DNA from: Candidatus Eiseniibacteriota bacterium
Lineage (GTDB): Bacteria; Eisenbacteria; RBG-16-71-46; SZUA-252
Length of the DNA: 64,000 bases
Reading direction: 5' to 3'
NCBI GenBank assembly: GCA_036505295.1
Contig: DASXTQ010000084.1
Coordinates: 511 to 64,510, forward strand
Of this stretch, positions 51,958-63,725 are shown one piece after another. The first letter of the stretch is position 1; every line of letters starts with the position of its first letter. The translations under genes were made by a program, and so were the position numbers. A model generated the notes under the pieces. It had not been told where the DNA came from. It saw nothing but the letters and a program-made list of their open reading frames with translations, and did no database searches.

Positions 51958-52344
51958 TCAGGTGGTCCTCTTCGCGTATCGATCGGCGCCCAAGAAGTGA
52001 AGCGAGACATACGGCAAGGCGCCGACAACCCAGGAATCGTGAGGGATCGGCGGGATATGAAAGAGCTCTCCAGCCTGCAATTCGATGACCTTGCCATCGT
52101 CAAACGACACCGCCGCGGTTCCGGCGAGGACCAGCCCCACGTGCTCGACCGTGCACCGCTCTGCTCCCACGCTCGGCCCGACGTGTTCGGACCACCGCCA
52201 CCCGGGCTCGTAAGACGCCCGACCGATCGTGAGACCGCCGATGTGAACCAGCTCGAAGCGGCCCTTGAGCATTTCGCGGACCTCGTCGGGCGTCTCGAAT
52301 CGCTTCAAGATGACATCGATGTTTCGCACGTCTCCCCCGGTCAT
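51958..52344 (-). CDS. cupin domain protein
   Basis: Approximately 128 aa, small beta-barrel pattern (start MTGGDVRN). Confidence 0.5.
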   Translation of the reverse strand: MTGGDVRNIDVILKRFETPDEVREMLKGRFELVHIGGLTIGRASYEPGWRWSEHVGPSVGAERCTVEHVGLVLAGTAAVSFDDGKVIELQAGELFHIPPIPHDSWVVGALPYVSLHFLGADRYAKRTT

Positions 52345-55739: not shown

Positions 55740-55768
55740 TTGACAACTGCACAAATGTGCACTATCCT
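55740..55768 (+). promoter_or_regulatory. lexA promoter (TTGACA-N17-TATCCT) with an embedded palindrome TGCACAAATGTGCA (55748-55761), candidate LexA operator
   Basis: Read directly. The perfect TGCNC-N4-GNGCA palindrome overlaps the spacer. The lexA ATG is 8 nt after the -10 element. Confidence 0.6.
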
Positions 55769-55775
55769 ATGTGTC

Positions 55776-56516
55776 ATGAGCAAGCCCAATCCGCCCAGGA
55801 CGCCGGGGGGTGCCCGGAAACGCAAGCCCAAGCGGTTTGCCGCGATCGACATGGGGGCCGATCGCGAGCAGGCGGTCCTCGACATGATCGCGGGGTCGCT
55901 TCGCGAGCAGGGCCGGCCGCCCACGATTCGTGAAATCGGGGAAGCCTTCGGGATCGCCTCGACGAACGGGGTCCGCTACTACCTGGACCGCCTCGAGCGG
56001 GCGGGGAAGATCCACCGGGACCGATGGACCTCGCGTGGGATCGAGCTCAAGGCGATCCCGGGAGGCGCCGCCGCGAGAGCATCCGTCCCCGCGGTCCGTC
56101 CCATTCCCGAACACACCACCCCACGCAACGCGATCGAAATTCCATTGCTGGGCCGCGTGGCCGCCGGCGCGCCGATTCTCGCCGAGGAAAACGTAGAGGA
56201 CGTGCTCATCGTAGACGGCGCGTTCGTGCGGCCCGGCAAGCATTTCGCTCTCCGCGTGCGTGGGGACAGCATGAAGAACGCGGGGATCCTGGATGGCGAC
56301 ATCGCGATCGTGCACCACGACGCGCCGGTCAAAAGCGGAGAGATCGCGGTCGTGGTGATCGGCGAGGAAGCGACCGTGAAGCGCTTCTTTCCGCGCCGCG
56401 ACAAGCTCCTCCTGATCCCTGAGAACGAGGACTACGAGCCGATCGAGGTGCGTCCGTCCGATCCGGAAGTGCGGGTCGCGGGCAAGGTGGTGGGGGTTTT
56501 CCGGAGGCTTGGCTGA
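55776..56516 (+). CDS. lexA: SOS repressor LexA (S24 peptidase) with a basic N-terminal extension
   Basis: wHTH, an Ala-Gly cleavage site (VAAGAP), and the Ser (GDSM) and Lys (VKRF) catalytic dyad. Confidence 0.9.
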   Translation: MSKPNPPRTPGGARKRKPKRFAAIDMGADREQAVLDMIAGSLREQGRPPTIREIGEAFGIASTNGVRYYLDRLERAGKIHRDRWTSRGIELKAIPGGAAARASVPAVRPIPEHTTPRNAIEIPLLGRVAAGAPILAEENVEDVLIVDGAFVRPGKHFALRVRGDSMKNAGILDGDIAIVHHDAPVKSGEIAVVVIGEEATVKRFFPRRDKLLLIPENEDYEPIEVRPSDPEVRVAGKVVGVFRRLG

Positions 56517-56812
56517 TGGTCCATGCGAACTCATTTCCCAAGGCAAGCGACGGTTACTTCATGATCGAGTCGATCCACGATCCCATCGAAGTCATCACGA
56601 TGTTCGGAAACGGGAAGATGCGTCCCATCCGATTCCGCTGGAAGAACAAGATCGTGAAGGTGGCCAAGGTGACGGGCGATTGGGTTCGCCACGAGGGGCA
56701 GAACAAGATCCACTACTTCGCGCTCCTGGCGGACAGCTCGGATTACTACGAGATCTGCTACAACGCGAAGGACATGACCTGGCAGCTCACCCGCGTTTGG
56801 ATGGAAGGGTGA
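56516..56812 (+). CDS. hypothetical 98-aa protein translationally coupled between lexA and dinB
   Basis: ATG overlaps the lexA stop (TGATG). Ends 6 nt before the dinB GTG. Lys/Asn/Tyr-rich and lower GC (~50% in the first 60 nt). No recognisable family. Confidence 0.55.
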   Translation: MVHANSFPKASDGYFMIESIHDPIEVITMFGNGKMRPIRFRWKNKIVKVAKVTGDWVRHEGQNKIHYFALLADSSDYYEICYNAKDMTWQLTRVWMEG

Positions 56813-56818
56813 CAGGCG

Positions 56819-58015
56819 GTGCGGGTCGTTCTGCACCTCGACATGGACTCGTTTTTCGCCTCGGTGGAGGAGAAGCTGAACCCGCGCCTCAAGGGGAAGC
56901 CGATCCTCGTGGGTGGCACCGAGCGGCGCGGTGTCGTCGCCTCGGCGAACTACGCGGCGCGCCCGTTCGGGATCCACGCCGGTATGCCCATGGCGGAGGC
57001 GAAACGGCTCTGCCCGCACGCGGTCTTCGTCGAGGGTAACCCGCAGAAGTACGTCCACACCTCGCTCCAAGTCCTCGACGTTCTGAAGAGCTTCACCCCC
57101 GCGGTCGAGCCCTTCAGCATCGATGAGGCGTTCCTCGATCTCACCCAGGTCCCGTATGCGGGGAAGCCAGGCGCGGAGGAGCGCGATCCCGCTGTGATCC
57201 TCGACTCCGCGATCCCGGTCGCCCACGCGATCCAGCGCGCGGTCCAGCGACGCGTCGGACTCACCGCCACGATCGGCATCGCGCCCAACAAATACATCGC
57301 GAAGATGGCGAGCGGCGTGCAGAAGCCGCGCGGCCTCACGGTGCTGACGCTCGAACGATACCGGGAGCGTTTCTGGGGCCGCAGCGTCCAGGAGCTGTGG
57401 GGGATTGGCGAGAAGACTAGGGAAGCGCTCGCCAAACTCGGGATCCGGACCATCGGGCAGCTCGCGAAATTCCCGCGTGAGTTTCTCACGTACCACTTCG
57501 GGTTGAACGGCGAGAACATGCAGGAGGCGGCTCTCGGTCGCGACGAGAACGCGGTCGTTCCGTACTACGAGGGGATCCCGGTAAAATCGATGGGGCACGA
57601 GATCACGCTTTCGGAGGACGTCGCCGACAAAGACGCGCTCTCAGCGCAGCTTCTTCGCCTGAGCGACATGGTCGGGCGGCGGCTCCGAGCGGACCACTAC
57701 CTGGGAAGGATCATCTCGGTGAAGATCCGCGATGCGAAATTCCGCACCACAATCCGCCAGCGCGCGCTTCCCTCGGTCATAGACGACGAGCACGAGATTT
57801 TCCACACGGCTTCGTTGCTGCTCGAGGAGCACTGGGACGGGCGGCCGTTGCGGTTGATCGGCGTGTCGGTCTCGGGGTTGGTCTCGGCCGAAGGACATTA
57901 CCAGCACAGCCTCTTCGACCAGGACGAGCATCGGCGGAAAATGCTCGAAGCGGTGGATTCTTTGCGGGATCGCTTCGGAGAGCACGCTCTCGTGAAGGCG
58001 GGAGTGCTCTGGTGA
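56819..58015 (+). CDS. dinB: DNA polymerase IV (Y-family translesion polymerase)
   Basis: GTG start. LHLDMDSFFASVE catalytic DxD, and a little-finger domain. Confidence 0.9.
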   Translation: MRVVLHLDMDSFFASVEEKLNPRLKGKPILVGGTERRGVVASANYAARPFGIHAGMPMAEAKRLCPHAVFVEGNPQKYVHTSLQVLDVLKSFTPAVEPFSIDEAFLDLTQVPYAGKPGAEERDPAVILDSAIPVAHAIQRAVQRRVGLTATIGIAPNKYIAKMASGVQKPRGLTVLTLERYRERFWGRSVQELWGIGEKTREALAKLGIRTIGQLAKFPREFLTYHFGLNGENMQEAALGRDENAVVPYYEGIPVKSMGHEITLSEDVADKDALSAQLLRLSDMVGRRLRADHYLGRIISVKIRDAKFRTTIRQRALPSVIDDEHEIFHTASLLLEEHWDGRPLRLIGVSVSGLVSAEGHYQHSLFDQDEHRRKMLEAVDSLRDRFGEHALVKAGVLW

Positions 58016-58043
58016 TGCGGGCGTCTGCGACGAGGTCCTGCCC

Positions 58044-58955
58044 ATGATCCTCCTCGGGACTTCGGGGTATTCCTACCCGGACTGGTACGGGGTGTTCTAC
58101 CCGCCGGGCCTCGAGCGCGCGAAGCAGCTCGACTTCTACGTCCGCCAGTTCAAGACGGTCGAGGTCAACTCGACGTATTACCGGATTCCGCCTCCATCGA
58201 CATTCGCAGCCATGGAACGGAAGACGCCCGCAGATTTCGAGTTCGTCGTGAAGGCGCACTCCGAGATGACCCACAAGCAGACGCGCGACCCCGAGGTGTA
58301 CGAGGCGTTCCAGGCAGCGATGGCACCCCTGCGCACGGCGCGGAAGCTGAGCGGCGTGCTCGCGCAGTTTCCCCAATCATTCCATCGGTCGGATGACCAC
58401 GAGCAGTTCCTCGTGGAGATGCAGGAGCGCCTGGAGGGCGCCCCGCTCTTCGTCGAGTTTCGGCACAACTCGTGGATGAAGGAGGACGTGTTCGAGTTCC
58501 TGGAGCGCGCGAGCCTGGGATACGTCAGCGTGGACGAGCCTTCGCTTCCCGGGCTCCTCCCGCCCGTCGCTCGCGCGACAGGGGCGCTCGCCTACGTCCG
58601 ATTTCACGGGCGGAATGCGAAAAGCTGGTACTCGGGAGATGAGGGCGGCGGCAAAGGTGCGGGGACCGGAGGCGCGGGGACCCGAGGTGCGGGGGCCCGA
58701 GACGCAGGGACCAGAGACAGCACTCCCGCGCGCCCAGCCCGCGACCGGCAGCTCCTTCGTTACGACTATCTCTACTCCGAGGCGGAGCTCAAGGAGTGGG
58801 CGGATAAGATCCGCGATCTGAATCAGAAGACTCAGAAGACCTTCGTCTTCTTCAACAATTGTCACGCAGGGCAGGCCGCGACCAGCGCCAAGCTCATGCG
58901 CACTCTTCTTGGAATGGCTGAGCCGAACGTGGCAGAACAGACAGGACTCTTGTGA
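58044..58955 (+). CDS. DUF72 (YecE/UPF0759) family protein with a Gly-rich low-complexity insertion
   Basis: N-terminal MILLGTSGYSYPDWYGVFYP, typical of DUF72. Confidence 0.75.
   Translation: MILLGTSGYSYPDWYGVFYPPGLERAKQLDFYVRQFKTVEVNSTYYRIPPPSTFAAMERKTPADFEFVVKAHSEMTHKQTRDPEVYEAFQAAMAPLRTARKLSGVLAQFPQSFHRSDDHEQFLVEMQERLEGAPLFVEFRHNSWMKEDVFEFLERASLGYVSVDEPSLPGLLPPVARATGALAYVRFHGRNAKSWYSGDEGGGKGAGTGGAGTRGAGARDAGTRDSTPARPARDRQLLRYDYLYSEAELKEWADKIRDLNQKTQKTFVFFNNCHAGQAATSAKLMRTLLGMAEPNVAEQTGLL
58657..58716. repeat. four imperfect 15-bp tandem repeats (gYgcgggRRcccgag-like) encoding a (GAGTR)n linker inside the DUF72 gene
   Basis: Read directly. Confidence 0.6.
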
Positions 58956-59137
58956 TGGTCGCTCTGCGTGCGCTGACGGTGGCCGAGCGCTCGCCTGATT
59001 ACGCCACCCCGCCCCGCCTGCTTGCGGTCACGCCATCGCCCTGGCCTTGCGAACGCCGCCCTCGGCTGTCTTTGTCTGTGCCACATACGCCGGCCCCGCC
59101 GCCTCCTCCGGCCAACCACCCCGGTACAGGTGATGCC

Positions 59138-60337
59138 ATGCCGAACTATTCATTGACCCACCTTGGTGACGCGGACCTCGTTCGTCAGCTTGCCGCGCTG
59201 GTGAATCGGGACCGCGCGACCACGGCCATGCTGCTGGCCCACATCGCCGAAGTGGACGATCGTGGGTTGTACCGGCCCCCTGGATACCCCTCCATGCACG
59301 CCTACTGCATGGGGGAGTTGCGGTTCTCAGAGGACGCCGCCTACAAGCGAATCCGTGCGGCGCGCGCGGGACGCAAATTTCCAGTGCTGTTCGCGGCGCT
59401 TGCCGACGGTCGGTTCCATCTGGCGGCCCCCTACTTGCTGGCACCTCACTTCACTCTGGAGAACGTGGACGAGCTGATACAGGCGGCCACACACCGGAGC
59501 AAATCCGACATCGAAGAGCTGATCGCCCGGCGATTCGGTGTCCCTGGATCGCCGATCAGCCTGCGTCCGTTGATCCGCGCTGTCGCGCCGATCCCTCCTC
59601 CGACGCCCAGCGCCCAGCTCATGACGGCAACCGGGAACGACGATTCGCCTGCAGGGGAGTCCCTGACGTGCGATACGCAGCTGGCGATGGCGCCAGAGCC
59701 ATCCCATCAGAAGGACTACGGACAACTGGCCCCGGGGCCAGTTGAGGGCACTCAAGTCCAATCCCTGTCTCAGAATTGCCCAGTGTTTCTCGTAAGGCTC
59801 ACGGTTCCGAAGAGCACGTGCGACAAGCTGCACTACGCCCAGTCGCTGCTCAGCCATGCGGTGCCTGCGGGGGACCTGGCCCAAGTTTTCGACCGGGCCC
59901 TGGACGCTCTGATCTCACAACTCGAGGTGCGGAAGCTTGGTGCCAGTACTCGCGACCTGCGGGGTCGTGAGGAGCACGCGCCGGCGTCTGGCGTAGGCAG
60001 GGCGTCCCGCTACATTCCCGCCGCGGTCCGACGCGCGGTCTGGGAGCGCGATCAAGGGCGCTGCACCTTCGTCAGCATCACCGGAGGCCGATGCAGGTCT
60101 CGCCGATTCCTGGAAATGGATCACGTTGTACCGGCCGCTCGAGGTGGGAAGGCGACGATGGAGAACCTCCGGCTGAGATGCAGCGCGCACAACCAGTACG
60201 AGGCGGAGCGCGCGTTCGGGGTGGATTTCATAAGACGCAAGCGCCAGGAGGCGTTCGCGACGGCCACGGCTCGCGATCTCTCCAAGGCTCCCGCCGCACC
60301 CTCCGCCGCCGAAGAGAACCGCGAGGATCCAGCATGA
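59138..60337 (+). CDS. HNH endonuclease with an N-terminal DUF222-like domain (REP13E12-type architecture)
   Basis: C-terminal HNH (CTFVSITGGRC...LEMDHVVPAARGG...CSAHNQYEAER). The N-terminal helical region resembles DUF222. Likely start is MPNYSLT at 59138. The stop overlaps the next start (ATGA). Confidence 0.7.
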   Translation: MPNYSLTHLGDADLVRQLAALVNRDRATTAMLLAHIAEVDDRGLYRPPGYPSMHAYCMGELRFSEDAAYKRIRAARAGRKFPVLFAALADGRFHLAAPYLLAPHFTLENVDELIQAATHRSKSDIEELIARRFGVPGSPISLRPLIRAVAPIPPPTPSAQLMTATGNDDSPAGESLTCDTQLAMAPEPSHQKDYGQLAPGPVEGTQVQSLSQNCPVFLVRLTVPKSTCDKLHYAQSLLSHAVPAGDLAQVFDRALDALISQLEVRKLGASTRDLRGREEHAPASGVGRASRYIPAAVRRAVWERDQGRCTFVSITGGRCRSRRFLEMDHVVPAARGGKATMENLRLRCSAHNQYEAERAFGVDFIRRKRQEAFATATARDLSKAPAAPSAAEENREDPA

Positions 60338-62838
60338 TCAGTAATCGCACTCATCCCGCACAGCAGGCCGTCGGCCTCAGCGAATTATTCGAGCCTGAGC
60401 CGCGACCCATGGTGACGAGCGTCGAATCAGTCGAGGAATTCCGGGCAATGCTGCTCGCGCTTCAAGAGGGCGGGGCGCGCGGGTCGGGCCGTGGGCGTGG
60501 CGCCACGAGCCCCAACGGTGCACACTCTCGCATTGGCGAGCGTACCGTACGCAACCCGCGACCCTACGATCAGCCCGAGCTTGTCCACGCGGAATCGCTC
60601 CCCGCGCGCCCCGCGCGCTACGCCGATCTCGCCGAGCCGCTTCCTCGCGCGCTCGCGCACGTCCTCGCCGCACAGGGGATCGCCCGCCTCTACGCGCACC
60701 AAGCGCAGGCGATCGACCTCGCGCGCGCGGGGAAACACGTCGTCGTCGCGACCGGCACCGCTTCGGGGAAATCGCTCGCGTATCACATCCCGGTTCTCGA
60801 GCGTCTTCTCCTCGAGCAGCCGGCCACCGCGCTCTATCTCTTCCCGACGAAGGCGCTCGCGCAGGATCAGCTTCGGGGGCTGCACCGATTCGCGGACGGC
60901 TCGCACGACCTCGCGCGCGTGCTCGCGACCGGTTCCTACGATGGGGACACGCCGGGCTCGGCACGGAGGAAGCTCCGCGAAACCGGAAACGCGATTCTCA
61001 CGAACCCCGACATGCTTCACCAGGGGATCCTCCCGTACCACGCGCGCTGGGGGCGGTTCTTCACGAACCTCCGTTACGTTGTCGTGGACGAAGTGCACAC
61101 ATACCGCGGCATCTTCGGCTCGCACGTGGCGAACGTGCTCCGGCGGCTCAGGCGCATCGCGCGACACTACGGCGCGGAGCCTCAGTTCCTCTGCTCCTCG
61201 GCCACACTCCGGAACCCTCAAGAGCTGGCAGAGCTTCTGGTCGGCGACGACGTCCACGTCGTCGATCAGGACGGCTCACCGCGCGGCCCCAAGCTCTTTG
61301 CCTTCTGGAATCCACGCACGTACGGGCCCGACTCACCCGAGCGCCGGAGTGCCTCCATCGATGCCGAGCGGATGCTGGTCGCGCTGCTCCGGCGCGGAGT
61401 GCAGTCCATCGTGTTCACGAAGGCGCGGGTCGTCGCCGAGCTGATCTACCGTTACGCCCGCGAGCGCCTGGAGCGCGAATCGCGCGGACTGGCGGACCTC
61501 TTGAGCCCCTACCGCGGCGGCTACCTACCCGAGGAGCGCCGCGCCATCGAGCGGCGCCTCTTCGACGGGGAGCTTCGCGGCGTGATCTCGACCAACGCGC
61601 TCGAGCTGGGCATCGACGTCGGCACCCTCGACGCCTCGATTCTGGTCGGTTTCCCGAACACGATCGCAAGCACGTGGCAGCAGGCGGGGCGCTCGGGCCG
61701 GAAGCAGGCGCCTTCGCTCGCGGTCGTGGTCGCGTACGAGGATCCGGTCGACCAGTACCTCATGCGGCATCCGAGCTACTTCTTCGGACAGTCGCCGGAG
61801 AGCGCGGTGCTGGACCCGGAGAATCCCTATGTGCTCGCCTCGCAGCTTTCCTGCGCTGCCTACGAGCTGCCGCTGAGCGAGGAGGACGAGGCGATATTCG
61901 GAAGCCGCGCGCCCGCGATCGCGTCGCTCCTCGAGGAGGAGGGTTCGTTCAAGTCCCTCGACGGCCTCCGCTACTGGTCCTCGGCCGAGTACCCGGCGGG
62001 CAGCGTGAACCTGCGCACCATCTCCGACGACACGTTCACCATCCTCGACCAGACGCGCGAGAACGCGGTGCTCGGCACGGTCGATTCGATCAGCGCGCCG
62101 GAGCTGTTATATCCAGAAGCAATCTATCTTCACGAAGGCGACACCTATTTCGTCCGCGATCTTGATTTAAAGCAAAAGATTGCCTACGTCGAGCCGCGCG
62201 AGGTGGACTACTACACGCAGCCTGTGCTCGACACGCACCTGAAGCTCGAGGAGACGCGCGAATCGAAGAAGCTCGGAGACGAGACGATCGGGCTTGGACC
62301 TGCCGGAGTCTCCTGGGCGACCGTCGCGATGAAGAAGATTCGCTTCCGGAGTCTCGATGCAATCGGCTATCACCCGCTCGACCTTCCGCGGCAGAAATTG
62401 GACACGATGGCGCTTTGGATTCAGCCCTCCGAGGGCACGCGAAACCATGTCAAGATCGCAGGGCTCAACCCGCGCGAGGGGATGTCGGGGCTACGAAACC
62501 TCCTCATCACGGTGCTGCCGCTCCACGTCATGTGCGACCGGCCCGATATCGGCGGGATCCTGGACAGAGCCAACCTCGGCGAGCCGACCATCTTCATGTA
62601 CGACCGCTACCCTGGCGGTTTGGGGTACGCCGAGCGCGGATACGCGATCGTCGGGGAGCTGTTGAGCGCGTCGCTCCGGCTGGTCGAGGACTGCCCGTGC
62701 GAGCTGGGATGCCCCTCTTGCGTGGGGCTCCCGATCATGCGGCCCGCGCAGCAGCAGGATCCCGATTTGTATGGCGGCTGGCCGATCCCAAGCAAGGCCG
62801 CGACCCTGGCACTGTTGCGGCGGATGCTCGGCCGGTGA
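60334..62838 (+). CDS. mrfA: MrfA/YprA-like DEXH-box helicase with a C-terminal DUF1998 Cys4 domain
   Basis: Walker A GTASGKS, DEVH box, helicase C, and a C-terminal CPCELGCPSC zinc cluster. Alternative start at 60409. Confidence 0.8.
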   Translation: MISNRTHPAQQAVGLSELFEPEPRPMVTSVESVEEFRAMLLALQEGGARGSGRGRGATSPNGAHSRIGERTVRNPRPYDQPELVHAESLPARPARYADLAEPLPRALAHVLAAQGIARLYAHQAQAIDLARAGKHVVVATGTASGKSLAYHIPVLERLLLEQPATALYLFPTKALAQDQLRGLHRFADGSHDLARVLATGSYDGDTPGSARRKLRETGNAILTNPDMLHQGILPYHARWGRFFTNLRYVVVDEVHTYRGIFGSHVANVLRRLRRIARHYGAEPQFLCSSATLRNPQELAELLVGDDVHVVDQDGSPRGPKLFAFWNPRTYGPDSPERRSASIDAERMLVALLRRGVQSIVFTKARVVAELIYRYARERLERESRGLADLLSPYRGGYLPEERRAIERRLFDGELRGVISTNALELGIDVGTLDASILVGFPNTIASTWQQAGRSGRKQAPSLAVVVAYEDPVDQYLMRHPSYFFGQSPESAVLDPENPYVLASQLSCAAYELPLSEEDEAIFGSRAPAIASLLEEEGSFKSLDGLRYWSSAEYPAGSVNLRTISDDTFTILDQTRENAVLGTVDSISAPELLYPEAIYLHEGDTYFVRDLDLKQKIAYVEPREVDYYTQPVLDTHLKLEETRESKKLGDETIGLGPAGVSWATVAMKKIRFRSLDAIGYHPLDLPRQKLDTMALWIQPSEGTRNHVKIAGLNPREGMSGLRNLLITVLPLHVMCDRPDIGGILDRANLGEPTIFMYDRYPGGLGYAERGYAIVGELLSASLRLVEDCPCELGCPSCVGLPIMRPAQQQDPDLYGGWPIPSKAATLALLRRMLGR

Positions 62839-63725
62839 TCTCCCAGGCGCTGCGGCAACGCATCGGGGAGATGCTCCGGGACGAGGCTCAAGTTGGTCGC
62901 GCCGGCGCGACGCTCGACCCCGCCGTGCGCCGCCCGCGCGAACCGCGGATCGTGCCCGCTTCGATCGAGGACATTCTCCCAGGCGGCGTCATGATCGGGC
63001 GCGAGGGTGCTATGTTCGTGCACGAGCGCCTCTACACGGACCTGAACGAGCGGCCGACGCCGCTGCTCAAGAAGTACGAGCAGATCGGAAGGCTGCCGGA
63101 CCCCGACGAGGCTTCCATGCCCCGCACCCTCCCTGAAGCGATCGAGGCGCTCGATCCGCCCGAGCGAGGGCTCTTCCAGAAGTTCGGGCATCGCCGCATG
63201 CTGTTCCTCGATATCGAGACGTGCGGGCTCCAGTCGCAGCCTGTCTTTCTGGTCGGGCTCTGCCACATCGGGGAGAGGAATCTCGTCTTGCGCCAGCTAT
63301 TCGCGCGCGACTACGCCGAGGAACGCTGCCTGCTCGCCGAGGTGGAGCGGATTCTGGGCGAGCACGACTTTCTCGTCACCTACAATGGGAAGACCTTCGA
63401 CCTTCCGTTCCTGCGCCACCGCGCCGTGTACCACAGGCTGCGCTTCGAGACCCGGATCCCGCACCTCGACCTTCTCTGGATGGTGAGACGCCGCTGGAAG
63501 GATCGCCTGCCCGACTGCAGACTCAAGACGCTCGAATCGCGCGTCCTGCGGCGCCTGCGCGCCGGCGACATCGACGGCTCCGAGATTCCCGGCGCCTATC
63601 ACGAGTACGTGAAGCACGGCCAGCCGCACCGGCTCCTCCCCGTGTTCCACCACAACCTGCTCGACGTGGTCGCGATGGCGGAGCTGCTTCCGAAACTCTT
63701 CGAGCCGGACCCCGAAGTCTACTGA
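62835..63725 (+). CDS. mrfB: MrfB/YprB-like RNase H-fold 3'-5' exonuclease
   Basis: Motifs FLDIETCGL (DxE), YNGKTFDLPFL and HHNLLDVVAM (DEDDh). GTG at 62835 overlaps the mrfA stop (GTGA). Alternative ATG at 62871. Confidence 0.75.
   Translation: MISQALRQRIGEMLRDEAQVGRAGATLDPAVRRPREPRIVPASIEDILPGGVMIGREGAMFVHERLYTDLNERPTPLLKKYEQIGRLPDPDEASMPRTLPEAIEALDPPERGLFQKFGHRRMLFLDIETCGLQSQPVFLVGLCHIGERNLVLRQLFARDYAEERCLLAEVERILGEHDFLVTYNGKTFDLPFLRHRAVYHRLRFETRIPHLDLLWMVRRRWKDRLPDCRLKTLESRVLRRLRAGDIDGSEIPGAYHEYVKHGQPHRLLPVFHHNLLDVVAMAELLPKLFEPDPEVY

Follow-up and report, generated by a model that had tools for sequence, protein, structure and literature searches.

Gene content and promoter of the lexA locus

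The 64-kb stretch of DNA analysed here, referred to below as the window, carries a lexA gene preceded by a consensus-like promoter and followed by genes with predicted repair functions (Table 1). The palindrome TGCACAAATGTGCA sits inside the 17-nt spacer of this TTGACA/TATCCT promoter, the order read being TTGACA, AC, TGCACAAATGTGCA, C, TATCCT, ATGTGTC and then the ATG of lexA, and its half-sites TGCAC and GTGCA are exact reverse complements. A sequence-only reading made before this analysis had placed a palindrome at 55748-55761 between the two hexamers, in the spacer of the lexA promoter; coordinates and description proved exact on inspection of the sequence and in a consensus promoter scan. 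Its assignment of the gene to lexA was confirmed by family and domain matches and by alignment to E. coli LexA structures, and the fit to TGCNC-N4-GNGCA that it had claimed was an exact match in a pattern scan. The mismatch to CTGT-N8-ACAG and to the Cheo box CGAACRNRYGTTCG was also borne out, two positions per half-site differing from the Cheo box. Together with its flanks the site reads CTGC-N8-GCAC, the commonest form in related promoters being CTGC-N8-GCAG.

The lexA promoter had 10 of 12 consensus matches on the plus strand with a 17-nt spacer (one found versus 0.3 expected in shuffles) and was the sole promoter-like site between 54500 and 58500 in the consensus scan. It was also the single match to TTGACA-N16-18-TANNNT on either strand of the window, which suggests that most promoters of the Eisenbacteria host deviate from the E. 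coli consensus. A divergent promoter shared with the upstream gene, encoding a SnoaL-like lipoprotein, was rejected because no minus-strand consensus promoter was present and upstream conservation of the gene does not extend to relatives.

In the LexA polypeptide, the cleavage site A130-G131 and the residues Ser165 and Lys202 align with E. coli A84-G85, S119 and K156, and the protein is predicted to be complete and cleavable. With its ATG 7 nt past the -10 hexamer, the lexA mRNA is probably leaderless; the corresponding distance is 6-11 nt in every Eisenbacteria-type lexA promoter. Ahead of the usual LexA start lies a conserved basic N-terminal extension of ~25 aa (MSKPNPPRTPGGARKRKPKR..., window 55769-55850), the first lexA codons differ among relatives mostly by synonymous changes, and the in-frame ATG of Met26 (55851) represents an alternative start.

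Table 1. Features of the lexA promoter and of the genes behind it in the window
Feature	Position	Strand	Evidence and remarks
-35 hexamer TTGACA	55740..55745	+	Promoter scan; invariant across orthologous promoters
Extended operator (putative) ACTGCACAAATGTGCACT	55746-55763		Consensus elsewhere ACTGCAC-N4-GTGCAGT
Core LexA operator (putative) TGCAC-AAAT-GTGCA	55748..55761	.	Perfect 5-4-5 palindrome; sequence and conservation before lexA orthologues and dinB
-10 hexamer TATCCT	55763..55768	+	17 nt from the -35 hexamer
lexA (246 aa)	55776..56516	+	TIGR00498, 181 bits vs cut-off 111; LexA_DNA_bind PF01726 and Peptidase_S24 PF00717
DUF6504-like protein (98 aa)	56516..56812	+	PF20114, E = 4e-4, below gathering score; start overlaps lexA stop (TGATG)
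dinB (DNA polymerase IV, Y family)	56819..58015	+	IMS, IMS_C; NF002677, 294 bits vs cut-off 256
DUF72 protein	58044..58955	+	PF01904, 6.6e-63; after dinB in L001-L004
HNH-motif protein, start codon uncertain	58952..60337	+	PF01844, 4.9e-5; 56% identical homologue at same position in L004
MrfA-like helicase (DEAD, Helicase_C and MrfA Zn-binding domains)	60334..62838	+	~80% DNA identity to same position in L004 and L182
MrfB-like RNase H-fold exonuclease	62835..63725	+	GTG start overlaps mrfA stop (GTGA)

The downstream repair cluster

Seven co-directional genes on the plus strand (55776-63725) lie behind the single operator, separated by overlaps or by gaps of at most 28 nt; dinB, for instance, starts 6 nt past the DUF6504-like gene. 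The promoter scan identified no further consensus promoters within the cluster, and no convincing terminators were identified on the coding strand, terminator-like matches occurring only inside the mrfB-like gene and not above shuffle expectation. Because the gaps are short or replaced by overlaps and consensus promoters and convincing terminators are lacking, we infer that the whole 8-kb cluster would be co-transcribed.

Copies of the DUF6504-like gene, 78-98% identical, are found after lexA in the related loci L001-L004 (L numbers designate the loci compared), and in other contigs the gene heads or precedes dinB. It was seen either between lexA and dinB or heading the dinB operon right behind the operator (L088 1629, L098 7536, L114 1567). 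The domain search detected no DNA-binding domain in the DUF6504-like protein, and the literature search found nothing on it. We regard it as a candidate accessory factor of Pol IV or of the SOS response.

Host lineage and conservation of the site upstream of lexA

Among one-genome-per-species contigs, the nearest LexA proteins were from Candidatus Eisenbacteria MAGs, namely L004 (88% identity), L003 (66%) and L012 (49%); L001 (69%) and L002 (64%) are MAGs with other labels, and the next was a Latescibacterota MAG (50%). NCBI treats Eisenbacteria as a separate candidate phylum. In DNA alignments, identity of the window to L004 across the repair cluster was 75-81%, and a soil metagenome contig reached 91%. 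We know of no cultured representative of Candidatus Eisenbacteria, which we take to have an affinity with the Fibrobacteres-Chlorobi-Bacteroidetes (FCB) group; Eisenbacteria, Latescibacterota, Ignavibacteria and Zixibacteria are presumably all non-Bacteroidetes lineages of that group. Loci labelled Latescibacterota, Ignavibacteria and Zixibacteria share the motif, which therefore indicates a broad lineage and not a precise placement. A bearing of the motif on phylogenetic placement had been suggested from the sequence, and this holds for the broad lineage; a precise placement, or one with Fibrobacter, does not follow, the nearest matches being Candidatus Eisenbacteria.

Judged on the window alone, the palindrome lacks significance. 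TGCNCN4GNGCA was found twice versus 1.47 expected (two or more in 39 of 100 shuffles), the second copy, at 52142, being inside a coding region, and there were 133 perfect 5-N4-5 palindromes of any sequence. The motif was not enriched inside the window, which has just one good site, and a relaxed scan of the window (at most 2 mismatches) gave 14 hits, none of which besides the lexA site was operator-like, the others having no promoter context and none lying near a repair gene. The significance of the site therefore rests solely on its position and on its conservation across genomes.

This conservation was assessed in lexA loci picked from the one-genome-per-species contigs by protein similarity only. 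The promoter-operator reads TTGACAAC-TGCACAAACGTGCA-C-TATCTT in L001, TGCACAAACGTTCA in L002 and L003, TGCACGAATGTGCA in L005, TGCACACGCGTGCA in L007 and TGCACAGGCGTGCA in L012. In L008 and L013 the operator is TGAAC-N4-GTGCA; weaker versions are present in L006 and L010 and a one-mismatch version further upstream in L009, and the L004 contig ends 23 nt upstream of the lexA ATG, still showing ...CAAATGTGCACTATCCT. The hybrid sites found in relatives include both TGAAC-N4-GTGCA and TGCAC-N4-GTTCA. When ~20 related promoters were anchored at the -35 hexamer (a few rows of this footprint being the dinB promoter of a locus, not the lexA promoter), only cCCTTGACAacTGCACAAATGTGCAcTATC.T was conserved and the upstream flanks were unalignable. 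Operators outside the promoter-spacer context numbered six in 1.9 Mb of compared loci, three of them having this architecture with a variant -35 and the remaining three being without recognisable promoter context.

Other damage genes behind the same putative operator

In L001, L002, L003 and L004, where inserted genes separate dinB from lexA-DUF6504, a second full copy of the promoter-operator immediately precedes dinB-DUF72. The lexA operon of the window has taken in dinB, hence the single operator there. As the part of the cluster from dinB to mrfB owns an operator copy in these four loci, the MrfAB-type genes appear to be under SOS control in the Eisenbacteria-type lineage. The dinB promoter of L004 (1890-1960), which adjoins two inserted minus-strand genes, resembles a duplicated lexA promoter, with the first lexA codons surviving in part (ATGATCAAGCGAAATCCCATAG).

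Metagenome sequences were searched with the pattern TTGACANNTGCACNNNNGTGCANTAT, which fixes both half-sites and the promoter and is silent on degenerate sites or other promoter geometries. At least 120 stretches matched, including near-duplicate contigs of one population, and with two viral contigs this gave at least 125 sites. Among the matches listed, 103 of 125 sites had lexA, (DUF6504-)dinB, the helicase operon or an HD hydrolase behind them in the sense direction. By class these were lexA, lexA-DUF6504 or lexA-DUF6504-dinB (at least 38 sites), a small Cys-rich protein and/or a ~900-aa DEAD/Hel308-like helicase (at least 41), DUF6504 and/or dinB (at least 18) and an HD-domain hydrolase (at least 6). 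Absence of the motif upstream of other damage genes had been named beforehand as evidence against a LexA operator; it is present before dinB in the four related genomes and, in metagenomes, before dinB, the helicase operon and the HD hydrolase. No recA, uvrA or imuA-type targets were among the matches listed, which is not to be read as true absence. Homologues of the Hel308-like helicase, the HD hydrolase and the Cys-rich protein were not detected in the window, the sole hit being the MrfA-like gene, faintly matched through helicase motifs.

The contigs bearing the pattern range from 34 to 69% GC among the matches listed, and the positions left free by the pattern were biased: AC preceded the site in 66 of 114, the spacer was AAAT in 60 of 114, and the base after the site was G in 86 and C in 24 of the 114 listed. 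Because the free flank positions are non-random, the palindrome extends to 18 bp, ACTGCAC-N4-GTGCAGT.

Several features of these loci were recorded in addition. The commonest non-lexA target of the promoter-operator among the matches listed was the Cys-rich protein/helicase pair, in which a 55-131-aa protein with a C-terminal zinc-ribbon-like motif (CPDC...C..C..CG..SC) and no Pfam match precedes the ~900-aa DEAD/Hel308-like helicase (L081, L086, L111, L131, L153, L159, L184 and ~15 others); a conserved GCCGATAA box lies ~13-20 nt past the -10 hexamer in these transcripts. Helicase-only operons (L082, L101, L176, L179, L200) have long 5' UTRs with runs of GTTCAT/ATGAAC-type repeats, arranged as inverted repeats in the stretch from the promoter to the start of the helicase gene. 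In L113, L115, L129, L139, L171 and L084 an HD-domain phosphohydrolase of ~434 aa (HD and HD_assoc_2) is located right behind the promoter-operator, often with a leader of 5-16 nt. The promoter-operator was also found before a phage SU10-type portal-like gene (sub-threshold in Pfam) on two metagenome contigs (L195, L091) and on two IMG/VR viral contigs (L201, L202), which may reflect SOS-controlled prophage genes.

Recognition helix and phylogeny of LexA

The recognition helix of the window LexA, S62-T63-N64-G65-V66-R67, aligns with S39-P40-N41-A42-A43-E44 in the DNA-reading helix of E. coli LexA. An alignment of the LexA N-terminal domains from all compared loci showed that the motif co-varies strictly with this helix. 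The TGCAC-type operator is associated with helix (A/S)STNGVR and wing SRGIE, CGAAC-N4-GTTCG with helix SSSTVH and wing PRA(I/M)E; gammaproteobacterial loci have helix S(A/P)NAAEEH, and a group labelled Kryptoniota/Bacteroidota, with a different palindrome, has KW(S/N)HG(V/I)ER. In the protein-selected set, the site (at most 1 mismatch, at most 300 nt upstream) was present at eight loci of the STNGVR type and at none of the other helix types. Comparison with the known LexA classes, which had been proposed as a check, thus showed the window helix to differ from both the Gram-positive and the gammaproteobacterial helices. A rough neighbour-joining tree placed all STNGVR LexAs, together with nine sequences with other helices (the KW(S/N)HG group and Verrucomicrobiota, Gemmatimonadota and Nitrospirota loci), in one clade, with the Gram-positive and gammaproteobacterial types outside it.

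Two further arrangements were observed among the compared loci. In L020, L022, L023, L026, L037 and L040 (Kryptoniota/Bacteroidota labels) palindromes of the AGTAGA-N6-TCTACT type lie just past the -10 region, and LexAs with KW(S/N)HG(V/I)ER and these palindromes appear to be a separate LexA motif class. In L011 (Gemmatimonadota label; ~2230-2350), whose LexA helix is STKGVEDH, lexA is preceded by 4-5 tandem copies of a ~16-nt sequence (GGTGTCGCTACGGGAC) and no palindrome.

Comparison with known LexA systems

The LexA box of F. succinogenes, an FCB-group member from whose genus this type of site was reportedly first described, is said to have been given by Mazon et al. in 2004 (Microbiology 150:3783) as TGCNCN4GTGCA, and these authors are said to have viewed the TGCAC-type box as an intermediate between the Gram-positive and gammaproteobacterial boxes, a view that the window site supports. 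The motif string for F. succinogenes was not found in the literature searched; compared with the reported consensus, the window site is of the Fibrobacter type at the sequence level. The two share the half-sites, the 5-4-5 spacing and the location in the lexA promoter of a Gram-negative bacterium, whereas the host of the window is a member of Candidatus Eisenbacteria with ~65% GC and its site is a perfect palindrome positioned exactly in the promoter spacer. The host does not group with Fibrobacterota, its closest LexA and DNA matches being Candidatus Eisenbacteria MAGs, and the LexA protein search of one-genome-per-species contigs returned no Fibrobacter locus. The LexA of F. succinogenes itself has been characterised (PMC3091678).

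With the Cheo/DinR box CGAACRNRYGTTCG the site has in common the 5-bp arms, the 4-bp A/T-rich spacer, a predicted autoregulatory role and the predicted control of dinB, and hybrid half-sites occur in relatives. It differs in having T for C and C for A in each half-site (4 of 10 positions) and in the helix, STNGVR instead of SSSTVH, so that by half-sites and helix it is not a Gram-positive Cheo box. The SOS box of E. coli and the Gammaproteobacteria is CTGT-N8-ACAG (PMC8565304). Here the likeness lies in a LexA dimer predicted to repress at the core promoter, in the conserved residues for RecA-dependent self-cleavage and in the family consensus CTGC-N8-GCAG, one base per half-site away. The differences are in the core reading, in the helix (STNGVRYY in the window versus SPNAAEEH) and in the number of operators, one in the window and two at E. 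coli lexA; with CTGC-N8-GCAC and a different helix, the window site is not of the E. coli type.

Verrucomicrobia are said to have a LexA motif TGTTC-N4-GAACA, described by Erill et al. in 2016, which is likewise a 5-4-5 palindrome starting with TG and ending with CA but differs in the middle bases of the half-sites; L017 (Verrucomicrobiota label) has TGCTCAAATGAGCA at the same promoter position. In Balneolaeota the LexA motif is a direct repeat, TTACACATATTTTWTACATA (PMC7739468), and the non-canonical LexA proteins of Bacteroidetes are CI-like repressors with other palindromes (PMC8565304). These neighbouring lineages resemble the present one in having regulons centred on lexA, translesion polymerases and a helicase, whereas the window has a canonical LexA and a palindromic box.

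Proposed mechanism and alternative explanations

The locus combines the features of an autoregulated LexA operator, with a canonical LexA downstream, a palindrome in the core promoter, conservation before orthologues and a motif shared across a regulon. We consider the palindrome to be, with a probability of about 85%, the operator of the SOS repressor LexA, which would shut its own promoter and the downstream repair cluster in this uncultured soil bacterium. In this model the two winged-helix domains of a LexA dimer, each with helix STNGVR, would occupy one TGCAC half-site apiece. The site so bound would take up the spacer except for the 2 nt adjoining the -35 hexamer and the 1 nt adjoining the -10 hexamer and, in its 18-bp extended form, overlap the first base of the -10. 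Since the site fills the spacer and in extended form overlaps the -10, bound LexA would exclude RNA polymerase from the only recognisable promoter of the cluster lexA-DUF6504-dinB-DUF72-HNH-mrfA-mrfB. Once DNA is damaged, LexA would be stimulated by RecA filaments to cleave itself at Ala130-Gly131 by means of Ser165 and Lys202. Transcription from the freed promoter would yield a lexA mRNA, probably leaderless, and expression of the translesion polymerase and the helicase/nuclease genes, until newly made LexA re-closed the loop.

The palindrome might instead bind another factor, either unlinked or the DUF6504-like protein itself, that co-regulates lexA, dinB and the helicase while LexA acts elsewhere or does not bind. 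The tight linkage of the uncharacterised DUF6504-like gene to this type of promoter would fit such a view, but we consider it quite unlikely: motif and LexA recognition helix change together from lineage to lineage, the targets lexA, Pol IV and helicase are the classical SOS core (PMC8565304, PMC7739468), and the geometry is LexA-like, 5-4-5 as in the Cheo box. Among the matches listed, 23 contigs have lexA alone with no DUF6504 detected downstream, though many of these are short or incomplete, and the lack of a detectable DNA-binding domain speaks against the DUF6504-like protein as the regulator. That the site is an ordinary Gram-positive-type Cheo box, slightly degenerate and read by a Gram-positive-type LexA, and so no distinct class, is very unlikely, despite the shared geometry, the 6 of 10 half-site positions matching CGAAC-N4-GTTCG and the hybrids in relatives. 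T at position 1 and C at position 3 are kept in both half-sites at most protein-selected loci, the TGAAC/GTTCA hybrids being exceptions (the metagenome matches cannot test these two positions, which the pattern fixed), and true CGAAC-N4-GTTCG LexAs carry SSSTVH instead of STNGVR and fall in a separate clade.

It is extremely improbable that the palindrome is a conserved spacer without repressor function that spread with a duplicated promoter cassette, its symmetry being incidental. The abundance of perfect 5-N4-5 palindromes in the window and the duplicated appearance of the L004 dinB promoter could be cited for this. However, sigma-70 spacers are normally unconstrained, and here the half-sites are symmetric across contigs of 34-69% GC among the matches listed and persist while UTRs and upstream flanks diverge completely. 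Natural variants, moreover, shift to other symmetric LexA-like half-sites (TGAAC/GTTCA), and the downstream genes among the matches listed are restricted to DNA-damage functions.

Implications for the SOS response of Eisenbacteria and related lineages

The LexA operator proposed for the window leaves the understanding of LexA repression unchanged; it is well supported that it represents a known type of LexA motif in an undescribed lineage, a real and not a surprising occurrence. Tentatively, and at somewhat less than even odds, ACTGCAC-N4-GTGCAGT in its near-invariant TTGACA/TATNNT cassette may be the common LexA box of Eisenbacteria, Latescibacterota, Ignavibacteria and Zixibacteria, controlling a compact, undescribed SOS regulon. 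If so, this regulon would comprise a leaderless lexA whose product has a basic N-terminal tail, a DUF6504-like protein as Pol IV partner, an HD hydrolase and a Hel308-like helicase together with a small Cys-rich zinc-ribbon protein, as well as MrfAB in Eisenbacteria, and the DUF6504-like and Cys-rich proteins would be unrecognised SOS components. The site can serve as a motif in searches for SOS regulon members in Candidatus Eisenbacteria and neighbouring lineages, and tying the STNGVR helix to a DNA motif helps the prediction of LexA specificity from sequence. It also flags small uncharacterised proteins, the DUF6504-like and the Cys-rich ones, as candidates for a role in the damage response.
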